A stretch of 64,000 nt of DNA from Mobula hypostoma (taxonomy: Eukaryota), in NCBI RefSeq assembly GCF_963921235.1, contig NC_086108.1, positions 36,210,001 to 36,274,000 of the forward strand, in the 5' to 3' direction. A program made the position numbers and the translations under genes. Every line of letters begins with the position of its first letter. The stretch's first letter is position 1. Below the pieces are notes generated by a model, which had not been told where the DNA came from, searched no databases, and worked only from the letters and a program-made list of their open reading frames with translations. Shown piece after piece: positions 20,955 through 45,731 of the stretch.

Positions 20955-20957
<3 letters not shown>

Positions 20958-21017
<60 letters not shown>
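20958..21017. repeat. (CA)n microsatellite
   Basis: About 30 CA units. Confidence 0.98.
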
Positions 21018-21019
<2 letters not shown>

Positions 21020-21105
21020 ACCCACCCCTGGCATAGTCCAACAATGGCCACTCCGTTCCAGCTGAGTTTAGGTTGCTGCTTACCAAGTCTGCACAGTCAA
21101 AAACG

Positions 21106-22050: not shown

Positions 22051-22994
22051 TCTATATACTACTAAAACTCTCATGCTCGGTCTGTCTGTTCGTCTGTTTG
22101 TGACCTCCAATTAGCACAAACGGCGCATTACAGTGGCACTTTTTTTTGGCTAAATCGAATTAAAATGCGCTAACTTACAGAATGCAGGCAAAGTTCAAGG
22201 TTATATATCCATATAAAATTGCTGATTCGCCAAAAATCAACACGCTGCCTTTCACCCAAGACCCGATTGGCCAGCATGGAAATAGGGACGCCACAGCCCG
22301 ACGCATGTGCACAGCCAGCCTCAGCAGCGGGTCACGATGCTCACAGAGCCGCTCCCACCTTCCATGGAGACGGCGACGGCACAGCCGGATGCATGCACAC
22401 GGCCAGCCTCAGCAGCTTGGAGACTTTGGTGTTACTGCTTCCTATCTTCTATCAAGCATTAGGGTAAAAATATATGGATAACCTAATTATGCCGGGTGGA
22501 AAGAGAAGGGGGACATTATGGTTAAGAGATGACACCTGACGTCGTTGGGAAGCAGCAAGGAGAGGGAGACAACAACAATCGGATGAAGCTAAGGCCACAC
22601 GATTCCAGGATCAAAGAATCGGGACAAAAAAGGTGAAAGAAGAAGAGACAGAGGAGGAGAGGCATGCACGTCTCCAGGATCAGAGACAAACAACAAACAG
22701 CAGAAGAGATGAAGAGACGGGGGATGAAAAGACTGCACGTCTCCAGAATGACAACGAGATGCACAAGGGTGGCAGATAAACCAGAAATGATGCCATCAAA
22801 AGTGTCATTCGTTAAATGAGGAGCAGCTATATTTGCTTAGCTACGAGTCGTTCTTCTTTAATAAACTGAGGTTTTCTACTTCAGTTTCGAAAGCAAAGCG
22901 AAACCAATAGGAAAATTTAATGTTCATTCTGGTCACATCAGACTGCACTACCCTTCTCTCAAAGGGTGCCCCAATGGGTCACCCCATTGTCTAG
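22051..22994 (+). mobile_element. Non-autonomous Helitron
   Basis: A|TCTATATAC 5' end; 3' hairpin GGGTGCCCC-AAT-GGGTCACCC (22964-22984) then CTAG|T; no TSD; internal decayed ORF with ETEEERHARLQDQR repeats. Confidence 0.85.
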
Positions 22995-24523
22995 TATGAA
23001 CTAAAGCTGGGTAAGCACACAAGAAAGAACTAAAAGGATATTTTAAGAAGGAAATTTATAAATGAATGGGGCGAGATTTGTTTGCAGCATAAATACTAAC
23101 AGTCAAGTTGGGCTAAATGGACTGGTTTTATAATGTACATTTTTACAGTTGTTCAATGGAATTATAATATTTAAATATTGCTTTTATTGTTTTTTGTTGG
23201 CATTTAACTTTTTAATTTCATTAAAAAATTTACACTTTGTTCATTTGTATTTCTTGATAGGCTGTAATTTGCATCCCTTTGTGCATACTGAAAAAGAAGC
23301 GTAAAACCTAGCTGTTTGGTTATTTGGGGCATAGCTTTTATTTCAGGAAGGAAGATACCTTGTTTCTCACTGTATGGGTTTGTCCATGAAGAGGGGGTTA
23401 CAGGATACAGAAAGTTTAAAGAAAGATGTATTTTCTTTTATAATGTAAATAATTACTCCACTGATGCAGGCTTTGCCTGTCATTAAAGAATTTAATATTG
23501 AGCCCAGATTTTAGAGCTGGGTATTGCATTAAAACGGGAGAGAACAAGTCTTTGTCCTGCCTGTCCAGGTAGACCCATTGTTTCAGCTTGCTCCTGTCCC
23601 ACCAAACTCATTTCTGCATACCTCGCCACTGTTTTATCCCCCTTTGTTCAATCCCCTCCCGCCTATGTTCGTGACGCTTCTCACGCTCTGAATTTTTTCA
23701 ATGATTTTAAGTTCCCTGGCCCCCACTGCTTTATTTTCACCATGGATGTCCAGTTCCTATATACCTCCATCCCCCACCAGGAAGGTCTCAAAGCTCTTAG
23801 CTTCTTTTTGGATTCCAGACCTAACCGGTTCCCCTCTACCACCAGTCTTCTCCGTCTAGCAGAATTTTACTCTTAATAATTTCTCCTTTGGCTCCTCCCA
23901 CTTCCTCCAAACTAAAGGTGTAGCCATGGGCACCCTTATGGGTCCCAGCTATGCCTGCCTTTTTGTTGGCTTTGTGGAACAATCCATGTTCCAAGCCTAT
24001 ACTGGTATCTGTCCCCCACTTTTCCTTCGCTACATTGACGACTGCATTGGTGCTGCTTCCTGCATGCATGCTGAGCTCGTTGACTTTATTAACTTTGCCT
24101 CCAACTTTCACCCTGCCCTCAAGTTTACCTGGTCCATTTCCGACACCTCCCTCCCGTTTCTTGATCTTTCTGTCTCTATCTCTGGAGACAGCTTATTTAC
24201 TGATGTCTACTATAAGCCTACGGGCTCTCACAGCTACCGGGACTATTCCTCTTCCCACCCTGTCTCTTGCAAAAATGCCATCCCCTTCTCGCAATTCCTC
24301 TGTCTCCACCGCATCTTCTCTCAGGTTGAGGCTTTTCATTCCAGGACGAAGGAGATGTCTTCCTTTTTTAAAGAAAGGGGCTTCCCTTCCTCCACCATCA
24401 ACTCTACTCTCAGGCCTATTTCACGCACATCTGCTCTCACCACATCCTCCCGCCACCCCGCTAGGAATAGGGTTCCCCTTGTACTCACCTACCACCCCAC
24501 CAGCCTCCGGGTCCAACATATAA

Positions 24524-24614
24524 GGGAAGGGTCTCGGCCTGAAACATCGACTGCGCCTCTTCCTATAGATGCTGCCTGGCCTGCTGCATTCACCAGCAAC
24601 TTTGATGTGTGTTG
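24524..24614 (+). mobile_element. PLE terminal-repeat fragment inserted into the PLE ORF
   Basis: Flanked by ATATAA at 24518-24523 and 24615-24620; ORF resumes (IILRNFHHLQRDPTTKH) after it. Confidence 0.85.
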
Positions 24615-24960
24615 ATATAATTCTCCGTAACTTCCACCACCTCCAACGGGATCCCACCACTAAGCACGTCTTTCCCTCCCCCCCCCCGCTTTCCGCAGAG
24701 ATTGCTCCCTACGCGACTCCCTTGTCCATTCGTCCCCCCCATCCCTCCCCACCGATCTCTGGGCTTTCCCTCTCCCCCTTTCTTTATCCCTAGGTCTCCT
24801 GTCCCATGATCTTCTCCCTTCTCCAGCCTCGTGTCTCTTTTGCCGATCAACTTTCCAGCTCTTAGCTCCATCCCTCCCCCTCCTGTCTCCTATCATTTCG
24901 GATCTCCCCCTCCCCCTCCCCCTCCCACTTTCCAATCTCTTATTATCTCTTCTTTCAGTT

Positions 24961-24996
24961 GGTCCTGACGAAGGGTCTCGGCCTGAAACGTCGACT
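24961..24996 (+). ncRNA. Minimal hammerhead ribozyme motif in the PLE terminal repeat
   Basis: GGTC CTGACGA AGGGTCTCGGCCT GAAAC GTC GACT; predicted cleavage after 24992. Confidence 0.78.
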
Positions 24997-25374
24997 GTAC
25001 TCTTCCTATAGATGCTGCCTGGCCTGCTGCATCCACCAGCATTTTTTATGTGTGTTGCTTGAATTTTCAGCATCTGCAGATTTCCTTGTGCTTTTGTTTT
25101 TGAGAGCAGACTCTCCTGGTGATTGCTAAAATTTTCTTTAGTTAATTTTACTTTGCATTTATTAAGTAAATACTCCATGATTAACTCGTTGTGGTGCACA
25201 GATGTGGCAGTGCTATTGCAGTCTTGCACCCTGACCTGGAACACCTGGCTGTCAAATGTCATACGTTCTGTCTGCTGAGGGAGTGCTCTGTTATCATCCT
25301 GGTAGCGGTGTATATTCCATCTTGGCAAATGTCAGACTGGTGGTACTGGAGGAACTGAGCATCGTGGTCAGCAA

Positions 25375-26535
25375 TCACAAGTTGAGGATGCCATTGTCTA
25401 CCTGCTGAACCGTGTCTATGCCCACCTGGACAAGCCAGCGAGCACTGTGAGGATCATGTTTTTTGACTTCTCCAGTGCGTTCAACACCATCCGCCCTGCT
25501 CTGCTGGGGGAGAAGCTGACAGCGATGCAGGTAGATGCTTCTCTGGTATCATGGAATCTTGATTACCTGACTGGCAGACCACAGTACGTGTGCTTGCAAC
25601 ACTGTGTGTCCGACAGAGTGATCAGCAGAACTGGGGCTCCACAGGGGACTGTCTTGTCTCCCTTTCTCTTCCCCATTTACACCTCGGACTTCAACTACTG
25701 CACAGAATCTTGTCATCTTCAGAAGTTTTCGAATGACTCTGCCATAGTTGGGTGCATCAGCAATGGAGATGAGGCTGAGTACAGGGCTACGGTAGGAAAC
25801 TTTGTCACATGGTGTGAGCAGAATTATCTGCAGCTTAATGTGAAAAAGACTAAGGAACTGATGGTAGACCTGAGGAGAGCTAAGGTACCGGTGACCCCTG
25901 TTTGCATCCAGGGGGTCAGTGTGGACATGGTGGAAGATTACAAATACCTGGGGATATGAATTGACAATAAACTGGACTGGTCTAAGAACACTGACCAGTG
26001 TCAGTGTGAAGGGTCGGAGCCGTCTCTATTTCCTGAGGAGACTGAGGTCCTTTAACATCTGCCGGATGATGCTGAGGATGTTCTACGAGTCTGTGGTGGC
26101 CAGTGTGATCATGTTTGCTGTTGTGTGCTGGGGCAGCAGGGTGAGGGTAGCAGACACCAACAGAATCAACAAACTTATTCGTAAGGCCAGTGATGTTGTG
26201 GGGATGGATCTGGACTCTGTCACGATGGTGTCTGAAAAGAGGATGCTGTTCAAGTTGCATGCCATCTTGGACAATGTCTCCCATCCACTACATAATGTAC
26301 TGGTTGGGCACAGGAGTACATTCAGCCAGAGACTCATTCCTCCAAGATGCAGCACAGAGCGTCATAGGAAGTCGTTCCTGCCTGTGGCCATCAAACTTTA
26401 CAACTCCTCCCGATCCAGGGTATGCAATATTACCACAAGGAGAAGGTACTAGAGCCTAAAGATCAACACCAAATGATACAGGAATAGCTGCTTCCATTCT
26501 GCCATTAAGGGTTTTGAATGGCCAACAAATCTACG
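25375..26535 (+). mobile_element. Rex1/Babar LINE (RT + C-terminus), followed by an older Rex 3' fragment
   Basis: RIMFFDFSSAFNTI, GAPQGTVLSPFLF, LQLNVKKTKEL, YKYLG, RLYFLRRLRSF, RKSFLPVAIKLYN. Confidence 0.9.
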
Positions 26536-26551
26536 AATGCTTTTCTCATTA

Positions 26552-28525
26552 CAGGTTTCCCCCGCTATCTGAAGGTAGAGCATTCCTGTGAAACAGTTTG
26601 TAAGCCAGAATGTCGTAAAGTGAATAAGCAATTACCATTTATTAATATGGGAAAAAGTTTTGAGCGTTCCCAGACCCAGAAAATAACCTACAAAATCATG
26701 CCAAATAACACAAAACCTAAAATAACAGTAACATATAGTAAAAGCAGGAATGATATGATAAATACACAGCCTGTATAAAATAGAAATACTTTTCTGCATT
26801 GTCTAGCGCAGCGAAAGTCTCACAGCAGCGCTCTCGGAGGAAGCGCTTTCGGCAGAGGCACGGCGCAAGCGCTCGCGGCAGAAACACTCTCTCCAGTAAC
26901 CTTTATGCTATGAAGCTGCCAAATCATCCCAAATAACACATAAAAATACACAGCCTATATAAAGTAGAAATAACGTATGTACAGTAGCCAAACTCACTAT
27001 TGCCATATTTATTGCTGATGGTTCAAAACCTTTAAAATTGTTCACTGCTTCGGGACACAGTTTCCTCCAAACGCCATTTCTCATCGAGACTGTTAGCCTA
27101 TCGAGAGCATCTCCAATGTTGGCGATTGTCAATTTTATATTGCATTCTTTCCAGACCTCTCGCAAAGACGCTTCGGAGTTGCCCTCTCTGTCAATGGTAC
27201 TTACAATAAAACGCATCACATTTTGCGCATAGCAAGCCTTAATTGTGGCTATTAGGCCTTGGTCGCACGGCTGCAGCAACGATGTCGTATTCGGCGGTAA
27301 GAACGCAACACGAATGTTACTGCCATACTTGGTAATGTCAGGCGGATGAGCAGCACAATTATCGACAATCACAAGACACCTATTATTGAGGTTATTTTCT
27401 CTACAGTATTTTTCAACAAAAGGACTAACGTATCTGCTCATGTACTCAGAAAAAAGCACTTGGGTATTCCAACCACTTAGATGTGAATGGAACACAACAG
27501 GAAGTGTTTTCTTATCAACGCCTTTAAGTGCCCTCGGATTTTCTGAATGGTACACTAGTAGAGGCTTAAGGACAGCATCACCAGTGGCGTTAATAATAGG
27601 CATTAGGGTAAACCTGTCCTTCGATGCCTTGTGTCCCTTAGCCTGCTTTTCTTCTATCGAAATAAATGTCTTGCTCGGCAATTTTTTCCAATAAATTGCA
27701 GTTTCGTCACAGTTAAACACGTGCTTATATGAATAACTGCCTTCTGTAATTATTTTCTTCAGTTCTGCTGGGAACTTTTCGGCAGCCTCAGTATCAGCCG
27801 AAGCACTCTCTCCAGTAAGCGTTAAACTATGAAGCTGCCCTCACTTCAGAAACAGATCAAACCACCCATGACTACCTTTAAATTCCACTTTTGCAACACT
27901 TTCATCACCATCGTCCAGTGCTTTCTGTTTCAACTTATTAAAAAGACTGACTGATTTCTCCTTAAGTATAAGAAAACTTAACGGAACACCACACTTTGTA
28001 CACCCATCAATCCACTCAAGCAATAGACTTTCCATTTTATCCATTATTGGATGCCGACTAAGAGAGACCGCTTTGCTACGAGCAGAACCAACAGTAACAT
28101 CGGCAGCTTTCAAAATTCTTGTTCTCTGCATATAAATAGTGCGAATGGTAGAGGCAGGCAAGTTCAACGCGCAGACAATGTCCTTACTTCATTCACCACA
28201 ATTGAAACGCTAAACTATATCTAGTTTTATGTTAAGTGTAACGCCCTTACGAGCTCTTTTAGGCTTTTCTGATACCTTAGAACTCATCTTACTAACGGAT
28301 ACGCAAAATAAATCGAGATAAAGCACGTGTTTAAGCAATGGCGGCTAGAATGCAGTTCCGGGGGAGGAGCTTGGCTGTTCAGGCGCGCGCTGCTTTTTTT
28401 CGTAACAGTGAAAACACCTTCTGTTAGTGAAAACACCTTCTGTTAGCGAAAACAGGTAACTAATATAGGTCTTTTGTAACAGCGAGGTGTCGTAAAGCGA
28501 ACATTCAGAAAACGGAGGCCACCTG
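26552..28525 (-). mobile_element. Tigger/pogo-like DNA transposon, inactivated
   Basis: TA|CAGGT...ACCTG|TA termini; CENP-B-type HTH (FKGSHGWF) and DDE motifs FNCDET, VDNCAAHP, FLPPNTTSLLQPCDQG. Confidence 0.95.
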
Positions 28526-29185
28526 TATTGCTATTTTGTTTTTCTTTAATGTTTATGTCTTACACTGTACTGCTTCTGCAAAATAACAAATTTCATGACT
28601 TATATAAGTGACAATAAAACTGGTTCTTATTTATCAGTGACCCAGAAAATGAATGAAAGTATGTTAGAGTCATAAAGTATCATTCAGTTTAGAGATCAAA
28701 TGACAAAGACATTTCTGTTTGAGGCAGGAAGGCAAATGTTTGTTTATTTATAGTTTTAACATGTCAGTTTTTATTACCTTTTTCTGCTTCTAATATTGAC
28801 TACTGAATTCAAATCACTCAGCTGTTCCTCCATTAAATTGTCTACTTTATAATGAAATACTAGTGGAGATTCAATATCTTGTAAGTGACCGACAATAGTC
28901 AAGGGCAAACATTGAAATGTTCATTGTACTTTGGAGTCTTTAATGAAGCCGGAATTCTGTAATGATGATGGTGGTTACTAACCAATTAGTACTATAGCTA
29001 CATTTGTGAAGTGCCATCTGCTAAATGTAAGTTTAGATTATAACATAATATTTCTGCTTCCCCAAACAGAATGGTTTGGTCTTGCAAGGATTGCTTAGAT
29101 AAGCAGGTTTTAAAGTTATTTTCAATTATGCCTGAAAGGCAGTCCCCTTTGTCACAAAATGCAGCACATGACACCTTCAATTAAT

Positions 29186-29230
29186 TTTAATGTGTTCAGC
29201 ATCAAGCTCCTTGATGCTGAACACATTAAA
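29186..29230. repeat. Perfect 21-bp inverted repeat with 3-nt loop
   Basis: TTTAATGTGTTCAGCATCAAG-CTC-CTTGATGCTGAACACATTAAA. Confidence 0.95.
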
Positions 29231-29434
29231 TTTCTGTAGCAGAAATTTGCACATTTTAAAGAAACTGATTTCACCATAGCAGTATCCAGCTTGGCAGAAT
29301 ATTTTTATAATTGTATCCATAAACAGTGTTATCAAGGAAAAAATACGGATTTTTTTTGAACTTTTTAAGATGGAACTGAGGCCAAATGTGGGAGCAGATT
29401 TGAGTTTTTCTAATTTAAAGAAATGTTATTTTAT

Positions 29435-29730
29435 TTACTCAGAATGTGGGTATCACTGGCTAGGTCTGCATTTATTGCTTGATTGCCTCTGAACTGAGTG
29501 GGTTGTTGTGTTTAGAGGTCAGCCAAGAAGCAACTGCATTACTATGGATCATGGTTTAAATAAAACATACGGATGGCAGATTTCTTTCCCTGAAGGATTT
29601 AATAAACTAAATGGATGTTTATGCTAATTTAACGGTACTGGTGACCATAGATCTGACATCAGTTTTTAATTCCAGTTTATTTAGTACTTTAATTTCACCA
29701 CTGCTGTGGTGGGATTCAAATTCAGGTCTC
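29435..29730 (-). mobile_element. Ancient tRNA-derived SINE (tentatively MetaSINE-type core)
   Basis: Minus strand has B-box-like TTTGAATCCCACC, core CCTTCAGGGAAAGAAATCTGCCATCC and tail AATAAATGC..GCCAGTGATACCCACAT. Confidence 0.55.
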
Positions 29731-30139
29731 AATAGAAATGGATACAAGTTCACTACTTAATTACTTCACTATTGTGCATCTATTGTGATGCTGAGACACG
29801 TCATAGAATGCGTTGGGACACACCATCAGTGATGTAACCTGGGGTCGTTGGGTGTTATGGGTCTTTCAACATCAGACACTCTCAATAACCAAATGAAGAG
29901 AAATTTGGAAAATTTTAGTTAGGTATCTGCAGAATTTTTGATGCTTTTATTCAGTGTCTATTTTCCTTTGTTAGCTTTGCCAAGATTCTATCCCTGATTT
30001 AGTGTGCCAGATCAGACTGGCTTTTCCCTGTCTGGAATTAATTCTTGTTGCCTCCCATCACGATGCTTGTGCTTATCAATTATAATGGCGTGTATAGCAA
30101 TATAAGCTGTCACAATCTTTAGTGAGAAGTTCCCTTACG

Positions 30140-31948
30140 TAGAATAGTACAGCACAGTACAGGCCCTTCGGCCCACAATGTTGTGCTGACCCTCAAACCC
30201 TGCCTTCCATATAAGCCCCCACCTTAAATTCCTCCATATACCTGTCTAGTAGTCTCTTAAACTTCACTAGTGTATCTGCCTCCACCGCTGACTCAGGCAG
30301 TGCATTCCACGCACCAACCACTCTCTGAGTGAAAAACCTTCCTCTAAAATCCCCCTTGAACTTCCCACCCCTTACCTTAAAGCCATGTCCTCTTGTATTG
30401 AGCAGTGGTGCCTGGGGAAGAGGCGCTGGCTATCCACTCTATCTATTTCTCTTATTATCTTGTACACCTCTATCATGTCTCCTCTCATCCTCCTTCTCTC
30501 CAAAGAGTAAAGCCCTAGCTCCCTTAATCTCTGATCATAATACATACTTTCTAAACCAGGCAGCATCCTGGTAAATCTCCTCTGTACCCTTTCCAATGCT
30601 TCCACATCCTTCCTATAGTGAGATGACCAGGACTGGACACAGTATTCCAAGTGTGGCCTAACCAAAGTTTTATAGAGCTGCATCATTACATCGCGACTCT
30701 TAAACTCTATCCCTCGACTTATGAAAGCTAACACCCCGTAAGCTTTCTTAACTACCTTATCCACCTGTGAGGCAACGTTCAGGGATCTGTGGACATGTAC
30801 CCCGTGATCCCTCTGCTCCTCCACAGTACCACGTATCCTGTCATTTACTTTGTACTCTGCCTTGGAGTTTGTCCTTCCAAAGTGTACCACCTCACACTTC
30901 TCTGGGTTGAACTCCATCTGCCACTTCTCAGCCCACATCTGCATCCTATCATTGTCTCTCTGCAATCTATGACAATCCTCTACACTATGTACAACACCAC
31001 CAACCTTTGTGTCGACGGCAAACTTGCCAACCCACCCTTCCACCCCCACATCCAGGTCGTTAATAAAAATCACGAAAAGTAGAGGTCCCAGAACAGATCC
31101 TTGTGGGACACCACTAGTCACAATCCTCCAATCTGAATGTACTCCCTCCACCACGACCCTCTGCCTTCTGCAGGCAAGCCAATTCTGAATCCACCTGGCC
31201 AAACTTCCCTGGATCTCATGCCTTCTAACTTTCTGAATAAGCCTACCGTGTGGAACCTTGTCAAATGCCTTACTAAAATCCATATAGATCACATCCACTG
31301 CATTACCCTCATCTATATGCCTGGTCACCTCCTCAAAGAACTCTATCAGTTTTGTTAGATACGATCTGCCCTTCACAAAGCCATGCTGACTGTCCCTGAT
31401 CAGACCATGATTCTCTAAATGCCTATAGATCCTACCTCTAAGAATCTTTTCCAACAGCTTTCCCACCACAGACGTAAGACTCACTGTCTATAATTACCCG
31501 GACTATCCCTTCTACTTTTTTTGAACAAGGGGACAACATTCGCCTTCCTCCAATCCTCCGGTACCATTCCCGTGGACAACGAGGACATAAAGATCCCAGC
31601 CAGAGGCTCAGCAATCTCTTCTCTCGCCTCGTGGAGCAGCCTGGGGAATATTCCGTCAGGCCCTGGGGACTTATCTGTCCTAATGTATTTTAACAACTCC
31701 AGCACCTCCTCTCCCTTAATATCAACATGCTCCAGAACATCAACCTCACTCATATTGTCCTCACCATCATCAAGTTCCCTCTCATTGGTGAATACCGAAG
31801 AGATGTATTCATTGAGGACTTAGCTCACTTCCACAGCCTCCAGGCACATCTTCCTACCTTTATCTCTAATCGGTCCTACCTTCACTCCTGTCATCCTTTT
31901 TTTCTTCACATAATTGAAGAATGCCTTGGGGTTTTCCTTTACCCTACT
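30140..31948 (-). mobile_element. Young 5'-truncated CR1 LINE, same subfamily as 9004-11345
   Basis: 370-aa RT ORF 30372-31484, highly similar to the 9-11 kb copy. Confidence 0.95.
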
Positions 31949-32074
31949 TCCCTTCCTCACTTCAAAACTAGTTTAGGTTGTAAAGGCCATTGGTGACATT
32001 TAATGGAAATTAAATGGAAGTAAAAATTGCAAAAAAATTAAGAATTTTAAAAATGGAGATGTGAATGTAATGTT

Positions 32075-32335
32075 AATGCATGGTAGTGCAATGGTTAGCA
32101 CAACACCTTACAGTGTAGGCAACTCAGGTTCAATTCCCGCTGTTGCCTATGTACGCTCTCCCTGTAACTGTTGATTTCCTCCCACAGTCCAAAGATGTAC
32201 TGGTTGGTAGGTTAATTGATCCTTGTAAATTGTCTCGTGATTAGGCTACAATTAAATTAGAAGATAACTGGGCAGTGTGATTTGAAGGCCGGAAGGGCCT
32301 ATTCCGCACTGTATCTCAATAAATAAAACAATTAA
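32075..32335 (+). mobile_element. tRNA-derived V-SINE (HE1-like elasmobranch SINE)
   Basis: A box TAGTGCAATGG, B box GGTTCAATTCC, V-domain TTTCCTCCCACAGTCCAAAGATGT..TTGTAAATTGTC, CR1-like tail GAAGGGCCTATTCCGCACTGTATCTC. Confidence 0.8.
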
Positions 32336-33218
32336 AACCATTGAAGAAAAATTATCTTTGCCTAATAACAATTCCCATTGAAATTCATGCGGTTTCAAAT
32401 TCTGTGCTAACATGGAAGATTCCACAGTAGACTTATCCCCCAAAGACCTATGGGGAAAATTGGGCTTCTCCTCTAGATTGTGTTGCAATCTAGCTGTGTA
32501 ATAAATAATATTTGTTAGAACAATCTGGTCAAATATTGTTTCAAATAAATATTTTAAATACTTAATCCTAAGTAAATGAATCATCAGTATCTCCATTTTG
32601 CTTTACTTTCATTGACAATATTTAGAAAGATAAGACATTTTCCTGACTATCCCCTTTCTCCCCCAATAAAGTTGCCATTATTCATGCATTGGTACCCCAC
32701 ATGACCATCCTTGTTATGAAATTTGGCAAGTGCATTTTTGAACACAGCAATTGTAGGGTGTCTGATGTGTGACTGCTGGTAAATCTGTTATTACACTAAC
32801 TGGACTTGGTCAGAATGCTTAAGCCTATTTTGTGTGAATTTAGATTTTATTGCTAAGTGTTGTGCAAAATTAAGATACTTGTGTATGCAATTAAGTTAAT
32901 AATGCATTTGGATGATTATTTTAATGTTAATTCTAAAATTTTTGAATTATTTCATCTCAAGGTCAGTTTGAAACTAGTGGGGAAGCAGAAGTGGGTTGTA
33001 AGCGAGTAAAGATAGGACAATGGTTTTGCCATCTATCAAATGTGTTTTTTTTCAAAATATTAATGGCGGTGATTTGTTTTGGTCTGTCTTTATGATATGA
33101 TTACCTTTCATGAATGAATCTGAAAGACATTAGTTAAAACATAATTTTTTTGATGGGTATACATAAGGTAAATGCAGTGTAGTGGGTACTTGAAAACAAA
33201 CTGAAACTACTCAGATAT

Positions 33219-34260
33219 TGAGTACAGGGGTTGACACTGTATGGCGCATTTCCTAAATATCAACTTTTCAAATCGTGAAAAGTATGTTCGATTCTTTATT
33301 ATGAAATCAGTAAAGACAAACGATCTTATAGCAATAAAACTACCATAAGTAAAATTAGCAATCCTAGCTGTATAATAACATAAGTGGTCAACAAAAAAAA
33401 TCACCCCCGCGCTAACTAGACTAAACTGACCTAAAGACAAAGTGTGAACATGTAACTGTACTTATTTGCTTCTACCACACCCCCAACCCAAGTGACAAAT
33501 TACCCATAATAAATGCACAACACAAAATGCAATGCAGACTGACAGAAAATGGACTCCTATATCCCGTCCCCAATTATTATATTATAATAATTACAGCTAC
33601 GTACTACAAAAAAAGGAGACATGAAATCTTCAAAAAGAAACATCTTACCATTCATACAAATGTCCTCTTTCTTCTTTCAGTCAAGTCATGTAACAGTCAT
33701 CTAGGCCAGAGGTTACCAGCACTTAGTCCAATATAGATTGATGTTTACCACCACTTTCTGTCAAGTCAAAAGTCATGAAGCTTCTAGAGCTGTAGCTCCT
33801 CAAACCTCTCTCCTGTAGAATACAGATCTTGGTTATCGGTCTTCAGACAGCTGGTCTTGGTCTTGATGCGTACCTGCTGCATAAATCCTCTTCTTCCTGG
33901 AAAGACTTGAATGACGCTTCCCATCATCCATGAGTTTCGGGGTGCTGTGTCATCAAGTATAAGCACAATATCTCCTGGGAGGAAATTTGTGTTTTATGTC
34001 TGACCATTGCTGAGGTTCCTGTAGCTGTGGTAAATACTCCTTGGCCCATTGTTTTCAAAACAAATTTGACATGTATTCGTCAACTTCTGTCTGCAACATG
34101 CAGAAGTGTCTTCCTTTTGGAACTTTCCTGTTGGTAAGGATGGTGAGGTCTTCAGAAGGTCTTCATGGTTGGGTGCTGGTGCTTCCAAATCATTGGGATT
34201 GGAGAATGCTTTAGTAATTGGACAAAAATTGATGATAACCCCCACTTCATGGCTCCGACA
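33219..34260 (-). mobile_element. BEL/Pao LTR retrotransposon remnant (integrase C-terminus, PPT, probable 3' LTR ~33219-33561)
   Basis: PITKAFSNPNDLEAPAPNH and LILDDTAPRNSWMMGSVIQVFPGRRGFMQQVRIKT are BEL polyprotein C-terminal motifs; purine tract ATTGGGGACGGGA on the minus strand at ~33562-33575. Confidence 0.8.
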
Positions 34261-34526
34261 TGCAGAATAATTGTGTCTCTAAACAGCAAGTTCAGAAGCA
34301 TAGTGACTAGTTTTGGTGGCAAGTGTGATATAATTTGCAAGATCCATGCCAGTCTTTAAATTTTGTTAACACGTTTCAAGTATTTTCACAGAAAAAACAT
34401 CGCCTTTTTTTTATCAGCAAAGTTAATCATATTACATTAAAGAAACCTTTGACTTAAATTCAGGAACCTGTATTGATTGGTGAGGAACATTGCAGTTTTT
34501 GTATCTTAAAAAACTTTGTATCATAA

Positions 34527-34706
34527 ACACAAAATAATCTGCAGATGCTGGGGTCAAAGCAACACTCACAACATGCTGGAGGAACTCAGTAGATTGGGCA
34601 GCATCCATGGGAAAGATCGGTCTACGTTTCGGACCGGAATGTCGACCGATCTTTCCCATGGATGCTGCCCGACCTGCTGAGTTCCTCCAGTGTGTTGGGA
34701 GTGAAG
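34527..34706. mobile_element. Palindromic PLE-terminus mini-insertion (second family)
   Basis: ~70-bp imperfect inverted arms 34563-34632 / 34634-34703; 13-bp TSD CTTTGTATCATAA at 34514-34526 and 34707-34719. Confidence 0.88.
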
Positions 34707-35620
34707 CTTTGTATCATAATGTTTGACAGAATAATGAGAATAGTCTTAACTCAAAGTTGCAAGAAATTGAAAGTTCTTTGCGAGAAAATGTGCAGGGTGT
34801 GTTCAACTGTACATCCTGAAATTGACAGTCTTATGGATGTCTTTTATTTTCTGTTTTGATAATCTTATATGTGAAGTCTACATTCCAGTTAAAGAATGAA
34901 CAAGTCTGCAGAGGAACCTCCATTTGATATTTCTCCTTTGCAAGAGGCAACGCTTTTGGTTTAAAAAATAACTTACTGATAGATCCCTAAGGTTGCTATT
35001 TTCAAATGGTTTGTGCTGATTGCTGCAAATTATGCAGATGTCTTGTATGTTAGGTTCTTCAATATTAGATTGAAATTTTAAAGTAATTAACAAGCCACGA
35101 GATATGTGGCTGCAGTACAGTTTCTTCTCAAGAAGTATGTTCTTCAAATTTTTTGACATTCAAGGCAAATTACAACTGTAATCTTATTTGGAAAATTTAT
35201 TTGTTGCTGTTCAAAAGGATTGGTAAACAGATTGGGAAGTTTCTGTGCTATTGAGGTAAGAGTTTTAACTTCAGAATATAGTTTGATCTATTGGTATATC
35301 ATTGCCGATATAAAACTTGTATTTGTCTACAAAGTTGTGTGTATGAGGATTTGACTTTATTCTATCTTACATCCGTTAATTTCCTTTTCTCTCCCCACTT
35401 CCCCCAGTTTCTGGCTGCAAATGCACAGTACAAATAACATAATGAATATATTGTTTAAATTGATATTATTAAATCACAAAGCAAGATATTGAATTTCTTG
35501 AGAACCTCTGGTTCTTTGTAGGTCTGTTCAGTCAGTCCCATTCCTCTGCCATTGATGATTGTCTGCCTGAGGTATCTAGAATTAGAAGTCATAATCTCAA
35601 AAACATTCAAGACAGAGCTG

Positions 35621-36598
35621 CAGACATCCCACCTCTCTCGGAACTTCTGGGAGTCTCCCGCATATTAGTAGGGGCTCCCTGATGCCCGCAAATTATATAC
35701 AATGTCTTGGAAATTGATTTTTTTTGAAAGCGAGCGTGAGAGAACGCGCGAGAAAGAGCGAGAGAGCGAGCGCAAGAGCAAGAAAGCAAGCACGAGTCAG
35801 TGCGACCGCGAGAGAGAGCGAGAGCAAGAGCGAGAGAGCGACCGCGAGAGAGCGCGAGCGAGAGAGACAGAGAGCAAAAGCGAGAGAGTGACCGCGAGAG
35901 AGCGCGAGTGAGAGAGACAGAGAGCAAGAGCGAGAGAGCGAGCGCGAGTGAGAGCAACTGCGAGAGAGAGAGAGCGAGCGCGAGTGAGAGCGACTGCGAG
36001 AGAGAGAGCAAGAGCGAGAGAGCCAGCATGAGTGAGAGTGACCGCGAGAAAGTGAGCGCGAGTGAGAGCGACCGTGTGAGAGAGAGAGAGAGAGGGCGAG
36101 GGCGAGTGAGAGCAAGAGCAAGAGAGCGACCACGAGTGAGAGCGATCACGAGAGAGAGCGAGTGAGAGTGACCGCGAGAGAGCAAGAGCAAGAGAGTGAG
36201 CGCGAGTGAGAGTGACCATGAACGAGAGAGTGAGAAAGTTCCAAAAATAGTCAGAGTAGCATAGTGTCCCAAAAAAAGAAAATATAAAATGTACGTCACC
36301 CCAGACTACCCTAAAGTGTACCCCTGCCTAATGGGGCTCAAAATAATGACAGTGTTGCTCGCTGCACTGTTTGCAACAGTGACTTTTCTATTGCCCATGG
36401 TGGGTTAAGACTGTAAAAGACATGTTGAGGTGAGTTTAACAGGTGTCATTCGTTCATTGGCATAGCTAACGTTATTTAAACTAGCTGGCTAGCTGCTAAG
36501 GAGCTACTCTATTGCAGACATCACACCTCTCCCGAAAGTCTCCCGCAAATTGATGGTGCTACCTCCCTGAAATGAGTTTTTGCAGGGTGGGATGTCTG
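35621..36598. mobile_element. Unclassified non-autonomous DNA transposon (MITE), 13-bp TIR, 6-bp TSD
   Basis: CAGACATCCCACC...GGTGGGATGTCTG; flanks GAGCTG / GAGTTG; interrupts a CR1 fragment that reads FKT-EL-RRNHFIQRVVN when one TSD copy is removed. Confidence 0.85.
35728..36236. repeat. CpG-rich (GA/GC) compound low-complexity repeat inside the MITE
   Basis: Recurrent GAGAGCGAGCGCGAGT, GACCGCGAGA and GAGCAAGAGC units. Confidence 0.95.
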
Positions 36599-39500
36599 GA
36601 GTTGAGAAGAAATCACTTCATCCAAAGGGTAGTGAATCACTTTGAGAGGTGCAGAAGCTCAGTCACGGAGTAAATTCCAGAAAGAGATTAATGGATGTTT
36701 TTTGTATCACATTAAATTATTTCCTCAAATACATATTCAAATCCCCTTTGAAGGCCTTGATATATTTTTCTACTCTCCTTGCAAGATAATGAGTTCCAGA
36801 TCATAACTGTTCAGGTATCCCCTTTTTCAACTAGTGTGTCTCCTCTGTTCTTCATGATCAATACTTGAAATCTGCGTCCCTGGATCTGAAACACCTTCTT
36901 TCCACCAATATAAAGGCACTTCTTAAAAAAAAAGTTGGAAGTGGCTATTTAGTACATTGTATCAGCCATTCAATAAAAATAGCACTGCTTTCCTGCACCA
37001 ACCCTCTATTTAAAAAAAAATCATGTCAATTTCTGTTTTGAATACACTCAATACTTGTACCTATATATCCGTCTTGGTGGAAAGTTCAAAAGATTCGCAG
37101 GCAACTAGGTGAAGAAATGTTTCAGTGAAATTACTCCATATTTTTCTAAAATCAAAATGGGCCAGACAGATTAACTGTCTTTTATAATATATGCAACATT
37201 ATAGGACTTGATCTGATGAACCTTTGCTGCACTCTCCCTGTTGCAAGCATATCCTTTTCCAGGTGAAACAACCAGGCTTATACACGGTATTACAGATGCT
37301 GTCTTGCTAGGATTCTATTAAATTTGTGCAAAATGCCTGATCTCAAATCCCCTTACTGTAAAGATCAGCGTGCTATTTACCTTTCTGATTCCTTGCTGAA
37401 CTTGCTGTTTTACTTTGAGTGATTTATGTATTGGGACACTGTTGTCCCTCTCATATTTGTCTGTCTCTTGCTACTTAACAGCTGCCCCAGCTTATTTTTT
37501 CCCTACTAAAGTGGGATTGCATTATATTATCTACATTTGTGTCTGCATTTCTGCATTTTATCTGCATCATATGTCATTTTTCATGTCCTTGCCTATTCAT
37601 TTAAAGTGGATGTACAGGTACAAGTCTGAAGCCTATCAGCATCCTTTTCACTGTTAGATTTGTACAATCAGCAAACTTGTACATCTTGGTATTAACTGAG
37701 GACAGCTGGAGCTGGTGTACTGATCCATACAGCATCTGACTGGTCTTTGAGTTATGATTGTTGACTTTTTTATGCGTGTTAACCAATCCTCAATCCATAC
37801 CCAGTCTATTATTCCCAAGGTCATGTGATTTCTTTGTAGATTATATCTGGTGTGGCAATTTACCAAAGGCTTTATGGAACTCCAGAAACACCACATTAAC
37901 CAGTTAAATCTTCAAAACAAATTCACAATATTTGTCAAGATTATGTCCAGCCTTGTTATTTTTCAAAGGCCCCATTAGCACTTCTTTAATAATAAATTCC
38001 GGGCTAAGTTGTCTTCAGTTTCTTGTTTTTTTCTCTCTTGCTCTTATCTATGGGAGCTCGTGCATTATGCTTCTGTTTACTGCTAGCCTACTCTTTATTC
38101 TTGTTTCCTTTCCTGCTTTGGTGCTTCTTTGCTAAATTCTGAAATTCACAATTTCCAGGCTTAATTTTGGGCAATATAAATCTTTTCCTTGATCTTGGAG
38201 GGTTATTTATTACCTGGAATCATTGCATTATTTCTTTACAAGCTAGGAATTCCTTGTTTGATGTCATTCCCAATGTAGGCATGAGCTGGCTATCGCGAGT
38301 TCATACCTTTGTAAATTAGAATCATAGAGTTTACAATATGGAAACAGATCTTTCACCCCACCGAGGCTGACCTGCTTAGCCATGATCACTAATTCCATAA
38401 AGGCGCAGATTAAGACTATAATCCTGTAATCTTCTAAACTTTGCCTATTTAAGTGCCTCTCTCCTACTTCAATTATATTGGAGCTAAATTAATTTAACTT
38501 TTCATATACATTTCTGTCATATTACTCTTCCTTTAAAGAGGCAGATATATTTGGGGCATTTAAGAAACTCTTAGATAGGTACATGGATGATAGAAAAATG
38601 CAGGGCTATGTGGGAGGGAAGGGTTAAATTAATCTTGGAGTAGGCTGAAAGTTTGGCACAACATCATGGACCATATTACTGGCTATAATAGTCTGTGACT
38701 TTCAGTACGCAGTTCTGGATCCAAAGCATCCCATTGCTTTTCTGGTTTCTCAATATACTGATCGAGGAAACCATGTCTTAAGAACTCCATGAATTCATCC
38801 ATTTATGCAGTTAATAATTTGGTTTACTGATTAAAATTTATGATTTAATGATTAAATGTTTTGTGTTACTGCTATACGATTATTACATAAACTTCTAATT
38901 TTCTAACCTGTACTCTGCCCTACATTGCTGCTACCATCTGAGGGCTTCTATTCAGTCCTCTTCTGCTTTTTGCTGCTTATTAGCTCTTTCAGTCCAGCTA
39001 GTCCACGCTGACCAAGCTGCAGAGCCACATTAATACCACTTCCCTCCAACTGGCCAATTTCCTTCTATTACTTTACAATATCAAATGATTTTTAAAAGCT
39101 GTTATTGTATTTGACTGTACCACTTCTTCTGGCAGCTTATTCCATGCATCCACTGATTGAAAATTTACTCCTCAGATGTCTTGAAGATCTGAACTAAAAT
39201 CCTTCAATTTATGCTTTTGTCATTATTTAATATCAGAGCTACCCCTCAATTTTCTTTGTTGTACAACAATCCAACCTTCTCCCATGGATCTTTGTAGCAA
39301 ATTGCCTGCAAGGTGATACCAACCTAGTTGGTGTAAAGTTTTCTAGTGTACCAGTAAAAATATAATCAAATGGATTTAATTTCTTGACAATTTCACTAGG
39401 GTTTAGAATTAGTTCTTTTTTTTTGATGATACTTATTCTTGCCAATTTGCCTGTAAAATCCAATTTCTGAAATAAATAGAGGTCATCACACAACATACCA

Positions 39501-41444
39501 ATTTCTTGATACACACTATTTGATTATTTTAAAATATCCTCTCAGATCAGTTTGTCAAAACATGTGCTTGTTTCTGTAGAGCTGACTTGTTCCTGAGGAA
39601 GACCTTTTCAGTTCTCGACCTGGTATTCTCAGCCTGCTTTCACTTCCAAAATGAACCCATCTCTCAAAAATCTCAGTTTTGAGATTTATTGTTTCTGTAT
39701 TCTTCTATACTCTTCCAGCTGTTCTCTAACCTTTCACACTTAATATACTTGACATCATTAAAAACTCATCCAGAGGCCAATACAATTTTAAAATTCTTGT
39801 TCTTGTTTTCAGTTCTCTCTTTTGTTCTCTGTGTCATTTCTTCCTGTCCTCCAGGATCTCTGCACTCCTCTCTTTTTGGACTTCTGTGCATCCCCAGTTA
39901 ACATCTCTTCACCTGCAGCTATACTTTACACTATCTACCCCCATGTTCTTTACTCTCCTCTCCTGTCCTCAGATCATTATGCGGCCTGGCATCATATTTT
40001 TAATCATTGCTGTGATAAACTCTGGGATATTTTATTACATTAAGGGTATTTTAAATTTTGCTTTGTTTTTTATGGATGCATTTGCATTTTCATTAGCATT
40101 TGGGGAAAATAGGATTTTTCTAGTTATCTAAAAAATTAAAGTTATGTCAACTTTGTCTCTAAAACAGAATTAAGCTTAAATTAACAGCTATAGACTGTGA
40201 GAATTTACCTTGATAACATTAATATTAGAATTTTTGTTTTCTTCCCTTAATTGTGAATGCTCCCTTTTTGTTGCAACATTTTCACTTATACTTTTACTCT
40301 TCTGAACTTTTGCGCTGCAAAGATGACATAGACTGGTGCATTCCTCAAGTTATCTCTAGCCTGTATGCGCATTTTGAAAGCTGCACAAGATATTCTGAAA
40401 ACAAAATGAACAAAAATGTAAATTTTGTATATTTATTTTATTGATAATATAAAATTCACCATCATTGGCATCTCCCAGGAGAATCTTTGCTTTTCTGTCT
40501 AAAGAGTGAAGAGTGGTTTGATTAGGATGACAGGTGGGTACACAGGCTAATTAACCTTGGTTTCTGCATTGTGCCTCAAGGGAGGTGAAAAAGATTTCTT
40601 ATGCACACATGTAGGCAGAAGTTCAGCAAAACATGTTCAAGTTCTCCAGTGTTATTATGATTATCTGTGGCCCAAAGCGAAGTACCACACTAGTGTCTTC
40701 AATAATATCTACATTCAAGACTTTCAGAGGCAATCATCACTCTTTGGAAGGGGCAATAGCTGACTCCAGCCTCACAAAGTGAGCATTCATTGGCTATATC
40801 CCAGAGCAATTTATTTATCTGATCCCACCTTCCTGCCAACTTAACTGTCAAGAGGTCAAAAAGGCCATTTGCTTCATGAAAATCAAGGCCTTGTGGTCAG
40901 AACCTCAGTCACAAATCTACAACCTTATTTCCCACTTCTGAGAAAAGAAGTACTTGCCAGTACCATCAGTCACCATACACATATTCAAAGAAGGAGACAA
41001 AGCCTACAAAGGTAGCCACTATCTAAACTCTGCCACAGGTAAAATTATTGACAGGCTCCTTTTAAATTGCGACTTCCTGGTCACCAAAAAGCTACTTTGA
41101 AAATCACAGTTTAGATTCCGTACAGCTAGGTGCACAATCCTCACCACACAACTCCGGGAAAAATGTGGCACTTTATGTGGTCTTTTCCTCCTCATGGAAG
41201 TCTTGGACCCTGTCAATAAAGAAGGATTGTGGTGTGTTCTTTTAAAATTTATCTTCATTTCACATTTGTCTCATAATCTTATGTGATCCCTGGTCCTTAA
41301 CAATGAGACCACAGCATGTCCATTTTTGTGTGTAGGTTGGTGTTGAGCAAGACTGTGTCATTGCCCAGGCAGTTTCTTGTTAGTCTTTCTGACCATGCTG
41401 CCTCCTCTCATTTCCAGCAAGCTTCCTGCTGAAATTGAACTTAT

Positions 41445-42132
41445 TGTAGCCCCCCCCCCCCCCGGCCACCCTCAGGGTCGCTCGGCTCGCTGTCGTCTAG
41501 GGAAACAGCCTCGGCCCCGCCAAACTGGATAATTCGTTTGTGTGGATGCTGTGTGAGGTACCCCACCCCGCCCAAATAACAGACTGGTATTAAATGATTT
41601 ACAGTTTATAGATATTACTGGAACTATATAATTAAAAGAGAATAAAATATAAAAGGAAAATAAAAGGCGCCACACTTATCGAAGTTCAATCTCTTCGTGC
41701 ACAAAAACCGTTGGAGCTCAAGGACCTTCTTCACCCTGCGACCCCCTCGGACCACCTCGACCGGCCGCCTGGGACCAACAACGGTGGTTGACCAGACGCT
41801 CCACACGAGTCCGTCTCCGTCTCCTCGCCGAACATCCCGCTTGGGGTCCGACCCCGTTAGCGGACTCACAGCACCTCGTCCATCCTCTGTCTCGCTCTCC
41901 CGCCTTCTGCCCCAAAACCCCGCGCATACAGTATCTTCAAATACACCAAAACCATAACAACTATCCCAATTGGTTAATAGCACTCTCTTATCAGACTCTA
42001 AAGCAAAAACAAACTGTTAGCACAAACTTTCTCAGTGTTTAACACAACAAAGCCGCATTCCCCAGATTAACGTAACAAAGACGCCATCTTAATTAGCCTC
42101 CGCAGTAACATAAAAATCGAAACCCCCTTACA
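41445..42132 (-). mobile_element. Solo LTR (688 bp, Gypsy/ERV-like)
   Basis: TGTA...TACA termini with perfect 4-bp TSD TTAT; CpG-rich, so probably young; strand is inferred. Confidence 0.85.
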
Positions 42133-42505
42133 TTATCTACAAGACAGATAGGAACTATTTAGTCCTTGTCATCTCCATTCTTGATTACTCAAGGTTATTC
42201 TAACTTTCGGAGTGGAATTGCAATCTCCTTATAATACTGGGCTATGCTCAAGTTTGAAGGCTGAGCTCCATTCAACAGCACATCCAGCAAAGCATGTGAG
42301 AGGATGGGCCTTGCACTCAAGTCTTTCAAAACAGAAGCCCTTTACTCACCTTCCCCACTTTACAAGTCTTCCCTCTCACAATAAAGGTCCACAATGAAAC
42401 TTTAGGTAAACAACAGGAATTCTGCAGATGCTGGAAATTCAAGCAACATGCATCAAAGTTGCTGGTGAACGCAGCAGGCCAAGCAGCATCTATAGGAAGA
42501 GGCGC

Positions 42506-42541
42506 AGTCGACGTTTCAGGCCGAGACCCTTCGTCAGGACT
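42506..42541 (-). ncRNA. Minimal hammerhead ribozyme motif
   Basis: Exact reverse complement of AGTCCTGACGAAGGGTCTCGGCCTGAAACGTCGACT. Confidence 0.8.
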
Positions 42542-42570
42542 AACTGAAGGAAGAGACTCTTCCTTCAGTT

Positions 42571-42606
42571 AGTCCTGACGAAGGGTCTCGGCCTGAAACG
42601 TCGACT
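42571..42606 (+). ncRNA. Minimal hammerhead ribozyme motif
   Basis: AGTC CTGACGA AGGGTCTCGGCCT GAAAC GTC GACT; predicted cleavage after 42602. Confidence 0.8.
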
Positions 42607-43080
42607 GCGCCTCTTCCTATAGAAAGTTTAGGTAATTTGGGTTACTTTGAATATCTCACTGGGCACTTCTCAGTGAGGGCAGACACAGGTGATCAAATCA
42701 TAAATTACTTCGTTGTGAAAATGTTTGAGGAAAAGGATATTTGAAGATCAAGACCTGAAACCTCTTGCATACTTTTGCTGACACCAGGCACCTTGGTGAA
42801 CTGGAAAGATAGTATCAATTCTATCTGCTTAGTTTTCCAAATTCACTGCCAAACCAAGTGAACCAAATGTCTTCTTCCAGACCTACATCACTGACTTGTT
42901 TCTACAACCTATGGACTCATTTTTAGGGACTCTTCATTTCATGTTCTCAATAGTAATAGCTTATTTATCTTTCTATCTATCTATCGATCGTTATTTATTT
43001 ATTTATGGTATTTGCACAGTTTGTTGCCTTTTGCAAATTTGTTGTTTGTCCGCCTTGCTGTATGTGGGCTATGGCTGATT

Positions 43081-43162
43081 CCTGACGAAGGGTCTCAACC
43101 CGAAGCCCTCTTCCTATAGATGCTGCCTGGCCTGCTGCGTTCACCAGCAATTTTTATGTGTG
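43081..43162 (+). mobile_element. PLE terminal-repeat fragment with a deleted hammerhead
   Basis: CCTGACGAAGGGTCTCAACCCGAA followed by loss of the cleavage site; TSD ATGGCTGATT at 43071-43080 and 43163-43172; sits within a LINE 3' UTR remnant. Confidence 0.85.
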
Positions 43163-43924
43163 ATGGCTGATTCTATTGTGTTTCTTGGATTTACTTTGTA
43201 GGCCCACAAGAAAACAATTCTCTGGGTTATATATGGCGACATCAGCATAAGTGCTGAAAGGACCACGTTGTTTCACAAACTACCTATCCACCGGCCCCAT
43301 TGAGCAACTTCCCTGTGTGTCACAAAGCCAGTGGGTGCCTTATCAGCCTCATCAGTCACTTAAGAACCCAAAGAGCTAGAGCAGAAATGAGTTGTCTGTG
43401 ATTCCAAGAGATTATCTAAGAAAGGAACCCCCATGAGATTTTGAAACAGAATATATAATTCATAAAGTAAAATAAACAAAAGAGTAAACAGCCTCCAAGA
43501 GTGCTTTTTATTGATTTTTACCTTCAAGTTCAAGTTTATCGTCGTTGAGTTGTATACTTGTATACTGCCAACTGAAACAACTGTCTTCTGAGCCAAGGTG
43601 CACAACACAGTACATATAACTCACTGACAGCATGTAAGTAATCTTACCACATATAAATTAATAAACAAAATATATTCCAGAAGATTAACGCATGGAATCT
43701 CAAACCCTCCGGATGTTTTTACAAGTGAAAATTGTTAGGGACTAATGAAACAATGTAATAAAAAGCACTGAAAATAATATTTTCTTCACTCTTGGATATC
43801 AATTAGTATTGGGCAAATTACATTTTAATTGACTATTGACTAGCATTGTTACACTTATTGCAACCTAAGTAAATTTTTCACTTTTCCTCAAATAAGACTT
43901 CTTCGAGTTAAATTAACAGAACAT

Positions 43925-44320
43925 AACATTGATTGTGAGGTGTGATTCAGTAGTAGTTCACATACCTTTCAGTTAAATGACCATGGGTTTGAAGTCCTCT
44001 AAAGGAAACTTCAGTATGGTATTTCAAGAATATTATAGTAAAGCAGGAGCTGTCTTTCAGTTAAGATGATAAATGAACAAAAAATATCACAATATCCCAT
44101 GGCACTTTTCAAAGGTCAACAGGGGATTTGTCACCAGAACAACATTTGTCTCCAGATGTCCTGAACAACATTTATCTTTGTAGCGATGCTGTTAGTGCAG
44201 ATTATCTTGCCATTTATCTTTCTTGTGTTGAAGCTGCTGGAATTTCCAATCTGTCTGGTCAGTGGAAAAAAATACCTTACTGCTTGTCAAGTAGTTTTGA
44301 ATGTCATGATAAAAAGTGCG
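43925..44320 (+). mobile_element. Ancient DeuSINE (SacSINE1/AmnSINE1-like core)
   Basis: GCTGTCTTTCAGTTAAGATG..ATCCCATGGCACTTTTC..AGGGG..GATGTCCTG resembles the remembered Deu-domain; degraded tRNA-like head upstream. Confidence 0.6.
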
Positions 44321-45428
44321 TAGCAGATCCAAATCATTTCTCTGAATACCTGTGCTAACTACACATATTCGATATTGAATGTGTGTACCGTGATCTTAGC
44401 CAACCTCAGCCTTGGAGTGAAGTTGATGCATTGTATTGATGATGGAACAAAATTGCAGTCAGTGGGAGGAGTTGAAGTGTACAAAACGTGGCAAAATTGA
44501 AAAGGATGATGAGTACAGGATTGAAGGTGTTATATTTGAATGCATGCAGTATATAGAATAAGGTGAATGATACTGTACAGTTGGAGATTGTCGGTTATGA
44601 CATTGTGGGCGTCACTCAGTCACGGCTGAAGAGGATCATAGTTGGGATGATATACCTTGCATCGAAAGGACAGGCAGGTAGAAGAGGGGGTGGGGTGCAT
44701 TGTTGCTTTAGTTCAAATTGGAATTTCTCATTATCTTGTGCAGCATAGTTGTGCTTTTTTTTTGTGATTGGTTGTACAAAAAATATAACAAGCTGCTTCA
44801 GCGAACATTTTGGGACATTTATGTTAATCCAGCCTGTTGTATTACTTTTCAGCTAAGATTTTTGTCCTTATTTTAATTTGAGAAATAAGGCACAGGGGTG
44901 TAAGTATGGATAACACCTAATTCAGCAAACTTAAGCTGCAGCAGTGAACTCTCATTTTATGTAATTAACCTGTAGTTAAATTGTACAATCCAGAAGTATC
45001 ATATTGATTCCAACAATGTTGTGCTTTCTGATTTCAAATGGGATGACACAAAGGTGGTGCAATTACCTGCCACAATTCCGCTCAGTTGGGCTATCTTGGT
45101 AAAGATTCATACTCCTTGTTACCCTAATTTTTCAGCTCTTAACATGTTCTTGCATCAGTAAACATGTTCTTTCATGTGATTGGGAATGATTAGGAAATTG
45201 CAGAATTTTAACTATGTTTAATGAATACGCATTGATGTTTGATTTGCTTTATTGTATTGTCTCCCTCACATTGTCATTGTATCCCCCTTTTAGAATTTTT
45301 AACTGTATTTACGCCTCTGCAAGTATGGTTTCCCTATATGTAGATGAGTTGTTAAATTTACCACTTTGCCATTTTATGATTCAAAGCTCTAATGTTTTGT
45401 TTAAATCATATTGAGCTTAAATTGTTGA

Positions 45429-45731
<303 letters not shown>

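Follow-up and report, generated by a model that had tools for sequence, protein, structure and literature searches.

The question raised by this locus is how a perfect palindrome carrying a hammerhead-like motif on each strand came to lie within an intron of CDC73, and whether it serves any purpose there. The window, that is the whole stretch of 64,000 nucleotides that was analysed, contains the following host feature.

7825..45441, plus strand: CDC73 (parafibromin) intron of about 37.6 kb, GT..AG, with flanking exons matching parafibromin.

The exons on either side match parafibromin residues 277-302 and 303 onward, which bears out the CDC73 intron context proposed in an earlier note on this DNA. 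Pfam analysis of five window proteins returned only sub-threshold matches, to RVT_1 and CDC73_N, on two of the five. Transposase-like ORF remnants occur in the window at 12406-13370, 3799-4355 and 26908-28188, together with several LINE RT fragments; from their appearance, we take these remnants to be Tc1- and pogo/Tigger-like.

The insert itself, which derives from a Penelope-like element (PLE), can be decomposed as follows.

42396..42409, plus strand: left TSD, 14 bp, the last 2 nt of which are common to the element terminus; empty-site version (C).
42408..42555, minus strand: long arm, a 5′-truncated PLE pLTR covering element positions 1-148 to the tail end; 89% identity to 24947-25086.
42408..42443, minus strand: "tail" of about 36 nt, present on the long arm only; other copies end just short of the tail.
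42556..42556, unstranded: centre base and head-to-head junction; the native sequence is without self-complementarity here, and loose contig ends lie at 42555/42556.
42557..42623, plus strand: short arm, corresponding to element positions 1-67 and terminated by a GA microhomology of 2 nt with the target.
42622..42635, plus strand: right TSD, with G at 42626 as the derived base.

The arms 42489-42555 and 42557-42623 are 67 nt each and 100% complementary, on either side of a 1-nt centre (A at 42556), so that the perfect 67+1+67 inverted repeat described earlier at 42489-42623 is confirmed. The base pair just outside the arms is a mismatch. By chance, about 1e-33 such pairs of arms would be expected per 64 kb of random sequence. 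This palindrome, with 53% GC, is the longest of the six perfect inverted repeats found in the window (arms of at least 12 nt, spacer of at most 30). One arm had been said to extend by some 80 bp to the PLE 3′ terminus; the long arm indeed reaches the element terminus at 42408, 81 nt past the palindrome. The short arm falls about 45 nt short of the usual no-tail terminus. The claim of a 14-bp TSD around the whole insert also stands: the copies at 42396-42409 and 42622-42635 are identical at 13 of 14 positions, and they are the only two sites reaching at least 13/14 identity among the 63,986 plus-strand positions of the window. Two nucleotides of each TSD copy are shared with the insert, namely AA on the tail side and GA on the short-arm side. 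The whole insert, about 215 bp, consists of pLTR stumps only and is without an ORF.

Other inverted repeats of the window may be mentioned here. At 47068-47140, a perfect 36+1+36 palindrome is found at the edge of an unrelated insertion interrupting LINE-type RT sequence, presumably CR1-like. Its left arm repeats the downstream flank in inverted orientation, and the palindrome looks like a repair fold-back without PLE. The perfect inverted repeats at 29186-29230 (21+3+21) and 14736-14789 (16+22+16) have no match to two pLTR queries.

Is the palindrome real, and was it inserted in one step? Contigs from four of the 23 listed sequencing runs were compared with the window, with one individual per species. 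In organism A, 42105-42430 is covered by one contig and 42596-43038 by another, with 0 differences each; hence, the sequence to the left of the insert is contiguous with the minus-strand tail, and that to the right with the plus-strand short arm. In organism B, a related species represented by one sample and two runs, contigs align to 42113-42400 and resume at 42627, the two positions being consecutive in the contig (305/306) across a single TSD copy. Over about 600 aligned bases, the flanks of organism B show 11 substitutions and two gaps relative to the window (about 2% diverged). Since the flanks are joined across one TSD copy in organism B, a single insertion event is indicated, and the absence of the insert from a close relative makes this insertion young. 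Allele shares within the repeat were set aside for dating, as contigs can be placed at two positions there. Thus, the search for an empty orthologous site with one TSD copy succeeded and the proposal that the feature was inserted as one unit is supported. The empty site carries C, as does the left TSD copy, and therefore the G at 42626 of the right copy is derived. From sequence comparison, the simplest explanation of this C-to-G mismatch would be a plain later substitution. A templated origin of the mismatch was considered and rejected, no match to the element continuation being found.

The earlier note had itself envisaged that the palindrome might be an assembly or fold-back chimera. This was partly checked through the two outer junctions, both of which are present in organism A contigs without a difference. 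A chimera would be consistent with the observations that none of the listed contigs spans the centre 42556 and that organism A contigs may share the window assembly's own sample. However, the two junctions show the element in opposite orientations, the inverted segment is small and lies between TSD copies for which an empty site has been validated, and the sister inserts described below have diverged arms, which would be unexpected of a chimera. A chimeric origin is therefore extremely unlikely, and it is almost certain that the feature is a single PLE insertion.

The assignment to a PLE derives from another copy of the repeat in the same intron.

23502..25090, plus strand: degenerate PLE with RT-region ORF pieces followed by the same pLTR, which ties the repeat to a PLE.

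The identity between the long arm and 24947-25086 extends over 141 nt, and this pLTR ends the PLE RT ORF. A search with the RT ORF at 23502-24900 gave 176 homologues at E <=1e-3 among 633 candidates, many of them with PF00078. PF01541 was found on 16 of the 120 RT-ORF homologues listed, and one homologue is named GIY-YIG nuclease family protein. For a nearby RT piece, the best-named homologues belong to rays and sharks, so that the host is probably a cartilaginous fish. In the local PLE pieces, Pfam found no GIY-YIG domain, the copy being degenerate with RVT_1 itself sub-threshold, and a PDB search with the RT piece gave two matches, both due to chance. As the repeat closes an ORF with a PLE-type RT, the PLE origin suggested before is borne out.

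In an alignment of seven local arms, two sites are preferred as 3′ ends, with about 36 nt between them. The tail is included in three of the arms, three end before it (21226-21327, about 24524-24615 and about 43080-43162) and one, 42557-42623, ends about 45 nt earlier. PLEs are reported to carry an optional tail of 30-40 bp at one end (PMC8557442, PMC11167929), which lies between two RT start sites in vitro (PMC11167929). The spacing of the local 3′ ends matches this optional tail. Two solo no-tail pLTR fragments can be noted. The first, at 24518-24620, has a 6-bp TSD and has landed in the ORF of a PLE that is older but of the same kind. The second, at 43071-43173, has an 11-bp TSD and has lost the hammerhead cut site through a 10-nt deletion; it is inverted with respect to the long arm, about 600 nt away, and 88% identical to it over 64 nt.

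Each arm of the palindrome contains a hammerhead-like motif.

42505..42542, minus strand: minimal type I hammerhead motif, for which cleavage is predicted between 42510 and 42509.
42570..42607, plus strand: minimal type I hammerhead motif in CDC73 sense, for which cleavage is predicted between 42602 and 42603.

Each arm had been said to hold a complete ribozyme motif. The core (CUGANGA / GAAA / NUH), a 5-bp helix I and a 4-bp helix II closed by G-U are indeed present in each arm, but there is no real helix III and no Rfam match. In place of helix III, a palindromic ACGT stub (ACGU in RNA) would form two base pairs with zero loop. Rfam at gathering thresholds gave 0 matches in the window. A stable helix III and an Rfam match, which characterize canonical hammerheads, are lacking in both copies. 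At the position of the conserved G10.1-C11.1 pair, which is a common trait rather than part of the descriptor, the fold tested has G-U. At 42583-42594, the young subfamily closes helix II with this G-U, and a related family in the contigs, seen in loose ends at 43107, keeps C. Neither viral nor metagenome contigs contained an exact match to the 33-nt motif (0 loci in each set). A palindromic stub of this kind would allow a dimer, and the self-duplex of the core region is predicted at -10.3 kcal/mol. Minimal hammerheads (min-HHRs) of metazoan PLEs are reported to give no detectable cleavage in vitro as monomers and low cleavage as dimers, and pairs of them 100-700 bp apart on opposite strands have already been noted (PMC4209133). 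Cleavage by a PLE hammerhead has also been described as protein-assisted, yet dispensable for insertion in vitro (PMC11167929). On its own, the motif would hardly cleave. The possibility that the head-to-head junction lies at the hammerhead cut site was considered and rejected, both arms starting 45 nt upstream of that site.

Besides the two-armed arrangement at 42396-42635, two further cases are found in the same intron.

21090..21340, unstranded: sister insert of the same subfamily, head-to-head, with a perfect 16-bp TSD; the tail is on the left arm and the right arm ends at the no-tail site.
34511..34719, unstranded: sister insert of a related pLTR family, two decayed arms lying head-to-head between 16-bp TSD copies that differ at 1 position; only the left arm has the tail.

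In the insert at 21090-21340, the arms are identical at 79 of 80 positions and the centre is asymmetric, at element positions 34/12. All three two-armed inserts examined are head-to-head, with a TSD and a one-sided tail. In two of the three, a single TSD mismatch is located within 5 nt of the short-arm junction (42622-42626 and 34704-34708). Fifteen listed contig joints, which come from other genomic copies in both organisms, were also considered; 654 further joints exist. Joints at 90% likeness with sides of less than 30 nt are often repeat-derived, and it is as repeat evidence that the 15 are used here. Of these, 11 are head-to-head; five depart from symmetry by no more than 2 nt, at element positions 16-21, and their centres differ. 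An asymmetric break at element position 34, in a GGCC word of helix II, is seen both at 21222-21226 and in an organism B joint of 42522 to 42571. Its recurrence in organism B suggests that position 34 may be a recurrent break point rather than the result of a later deletion.

The published record gives a frame for these observations. PLE insertions in which an inverted, 5′-truncated copy adjoins the 5′ end, with the tail at one end, have been described (PMC8557442), as have PLE inverted junctions forming palindromes, head to head, with TSDs (PMC3846280). A special status of the insert is thus unsupported: it is an ordinary member of a known architecture, reported as a hallmark of PLE insertions (PMC8557442, PMC3846280), which recurs twice in the same intron. 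A literature search, mainly of open-access sources, found neither palindromic PLE mini-insertions in rays nor twin priming by PLEs. In a 2026 retrozyme preprint, the word "inverted" occurs in the reference list only.

Was the palindrome copied or was it made on the spot? It may be envisaged that it is a small non-autonomous element, MITE- or retrozyme-like, that moves pre-formed. That one TSD brackets both arms and that many near-symmetric joints cluster at element positions 16-21 would agree with such a mobile unit. However, the centres vary (1/1 here, 34/12 at the sister insert and, in the listed joints, five near-symmetric pairs that all differ), the outer ends are not of the same length (148 vs 67 nt) and the 42556 centre is absent among the 15 listed joints. 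A pre-formed unit is accordingly very unlikely. Because the centres differ among copies, each insertion probably builds its own palindrome, and it is highly probable that the present one was formed at insertion, not copied from a palindromic master.

Two mechanisms of formation deserve consideration. In the first one, both target ends would prime. The GIY-YIG endonuclease of the element would cut the two strands 14 nt apart and leave two 3′ overhangs, as the geometry of the TSD implies. The top-strand end would prime a cDNA at the tail start site through a 2-nt AA/UU match, and the bottom-strand end would start another cDNA at an internal site, through a 2-nt match of GA. The two cDNAs would extend to the same template RNA 5′ end, 13 nt upstream of helix I. 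They would then be joined end to end with one centre base, and fill-in would yield the TSD. Support for this scheme comes from the anole PLE protein, which is reported to cut and extend both strands in vitro, with two RT start sites, and is predicted to be dimeric (PMC11167929). In L1 twin priming, according to a published survey, discrete TSDs are kept and microhomology of at least 2 bp is observed in 71% of cases, but, to the disadvantage of the comparison, the arms overlap by 1-10 bp only (PMC11702581) and not by 67. In the window, the short arms 21226-21327 and 34634-34711 terminate at the no-tail site or close to it, and solo copies with their own TSDs end there too. Such ends would be expected if the short arm had primed on RNA. 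Since 42557-42623 ends off the no-tail site, it is the sister inserts rather than the present one that speak best for two-ended priming. If 45 nt had been deleted at GA after the insertion, the short arm would look the same.

In the second mechanism, the tail-primed cDNA would stop at element position 1, snap back, copy 67 nt and anneal to the target at GA, the copying being carried out by the PLE RT or by a host repair polymerase. Perfect symmetry and identical arms are what such a fold-back would give, and self-priming has been proposed for PLE palindromic inverted junctions (PMC3846280). The short arm 42557-42623 ends at an arbitrary internal point with microhomology, and the sister centres 21222-21226 and 34626-34634 hold short self-complementary words. 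In addition, perfect fold-backs that contain no PLE sequence and have 1-3-nt centres lie nearby, at 47068-47140 and 29186-29230, which indicates that host repair can make similar shapes. On the other hand, the native sequence upstream of the 42556 fold, as given by the ORF-linked pLTR, is without a self-complementary primer, and the sister inserts end at one discrete start site, that of the no-tail copies, as would not be expected from fold-back. Fold-back therefore remains a serious but lesser possibility, and we lean towards two-ended priming rather than fold-back.

What would the insert do once transcribed? The suggestion that a transcript of either strand would form a long hairpin is strongly favoured by fold prediction. 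For the palindromic RNA, the hairpin is predicted at -138 kcal/mol vs -7.7 for the hammerhead fold, the predicted pair probabilities of helix I are about 1e-47 or less and the predicted hairpin fold has z = -17. According to these models, CDC73 pre-mRNA across the site would fold into a 66-bp hairpin burying the motif. Sequestration of the ribozyme, proposed earlier, is in this sense predicted by folding, but it would probably change little, the monomer class being reported inactive. Moreover, each transcript would contain one sense and one antisense motif, hence no active dimer and little activity to lose. A nuclear 66-bp duplex is a plausible ADAR substrate, and the modelled hairpin may be incidentally A-to-I edited. 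The sequencing-run search listed no RNA run containing the locus, and a run guessed to be RNA has zero depth on the unique flanks 42182-42369; its A>G count of 4, the same as in the DNA runs, is uninformative as to expression or editing, as repeat contigs from elsewhere pile up.

It may then be imagined that the hairpin is a working silencing trigger, acting through Dicer-made anti-PLE siRNAs or through regulatory ADAR editing. The predicted hairpin dominates the fold and is located inside a CDC73 intron, and Alu-derived small RNAs are reportedly made by DICER/ADAR1. PLE-directed small RNAs have been described in rotifer and Drosophila; however, those of the rotifer PLEs are reported as mostly piRNA-like, 25-32 nt in length (PMC3846280). 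Further observations argue against a trigger at this locus. The insert is absent from a relative only about 2% diverged, and the older sister hairpins are decaying. The CDC73 intron already has 22 opposite-strand repeat pairs, 19 of them of at least 60 nt. Element-matching contigs reach a depth more than 1e5 times that of the flanks, a figure which is not a copy number, so that one locus would add little. A working trigger is quite unlikely here, as is any special silencing role. From its youth and redundancy, the insert very probably has no selected function. It is likely a by-product of PLE copying, not a built-in silencing device. Taken together, the feature is a young insertion composed of two head-to-head, 5′-truncated PLE ends, likely produced by two-ended priming and likely without selected function.

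As a single locus, a young repeat insertion in an intron has small weight. Nevertheless, the empty site, the exact TSD boundaries, the 2-nt microhomologies at both ends and the symmetric junction constrain models of PLE inverted structures, the origin of which has been called unresolved (PMC8557442, PMC11167929). In a genome with very many young copies, twin priming and fold-back would be decidable from short-arm ends and centres. A broader and improbable idea would be that PLEs routinely twin-prime with duplication, by means of a dimeric protein, and that the resulting intronic hairpins collectively feed a self-limiting small-RNA/ADAR response. If routine twin priming were true, symmetric junctions would map the template RNA 5′ end in vivo. 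If the hairpins collectively gave small RNAs, the insertion chemistry would be tied to the silencing of the element itself, as a negative feedback.

Finally, the locus can be compared with known systems. Like the min-HHRs described for PLEs (PMC4209133), the motif has a type I core, a 5-bp helix I, a palindromic ACGT stub and, ahead of helix II, one base left unpaired. Unlike them, its helix II closes with G-U (or A-U) instead of G10.1-C11.1, and the two copies are 27 nt apart, much closer than in the pairs reported there (PMC4209133). The palindrome, with its 135 bp and 53% GC, also differs from long fragile human palindromes, reported to span several hundred bp with more than 90% AT (PMC7999016). 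The cruciform that the DNA might extrude, according to the earlier note, is a candidate structure for which the review literature on palindromes offered no deciding threshold at this length and GC content. As with inverted Alu pairs, a repeat-derived duplex in pre-mRNA would be a plausible ADAR substrate; the predicted duplex here is much shorter, perfect and due to one insertion event. With the 5′ inversions attributed to L1 twin priming (PMC11702581), the preferred reading has in common that both 3′ overhangs would prime, that the TSD is kept and that the second site shows microhomology, whereas the second arm here duplicates 67 nt of the first and there is no poly(A). Close relatives are the insertions described for EN+ PLEs (PMC8557442, PMC3846280), with which the locus shares the head-to-head arrangement, the tail at one end, the TSD, the junction palindrome and the AT-rich target. 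It departs from those accounts in being made of pLTR stumps only (about 215 bp), in its exactly symmetric junction and in its short arm, which stops at an internal 2-nt microhomology.
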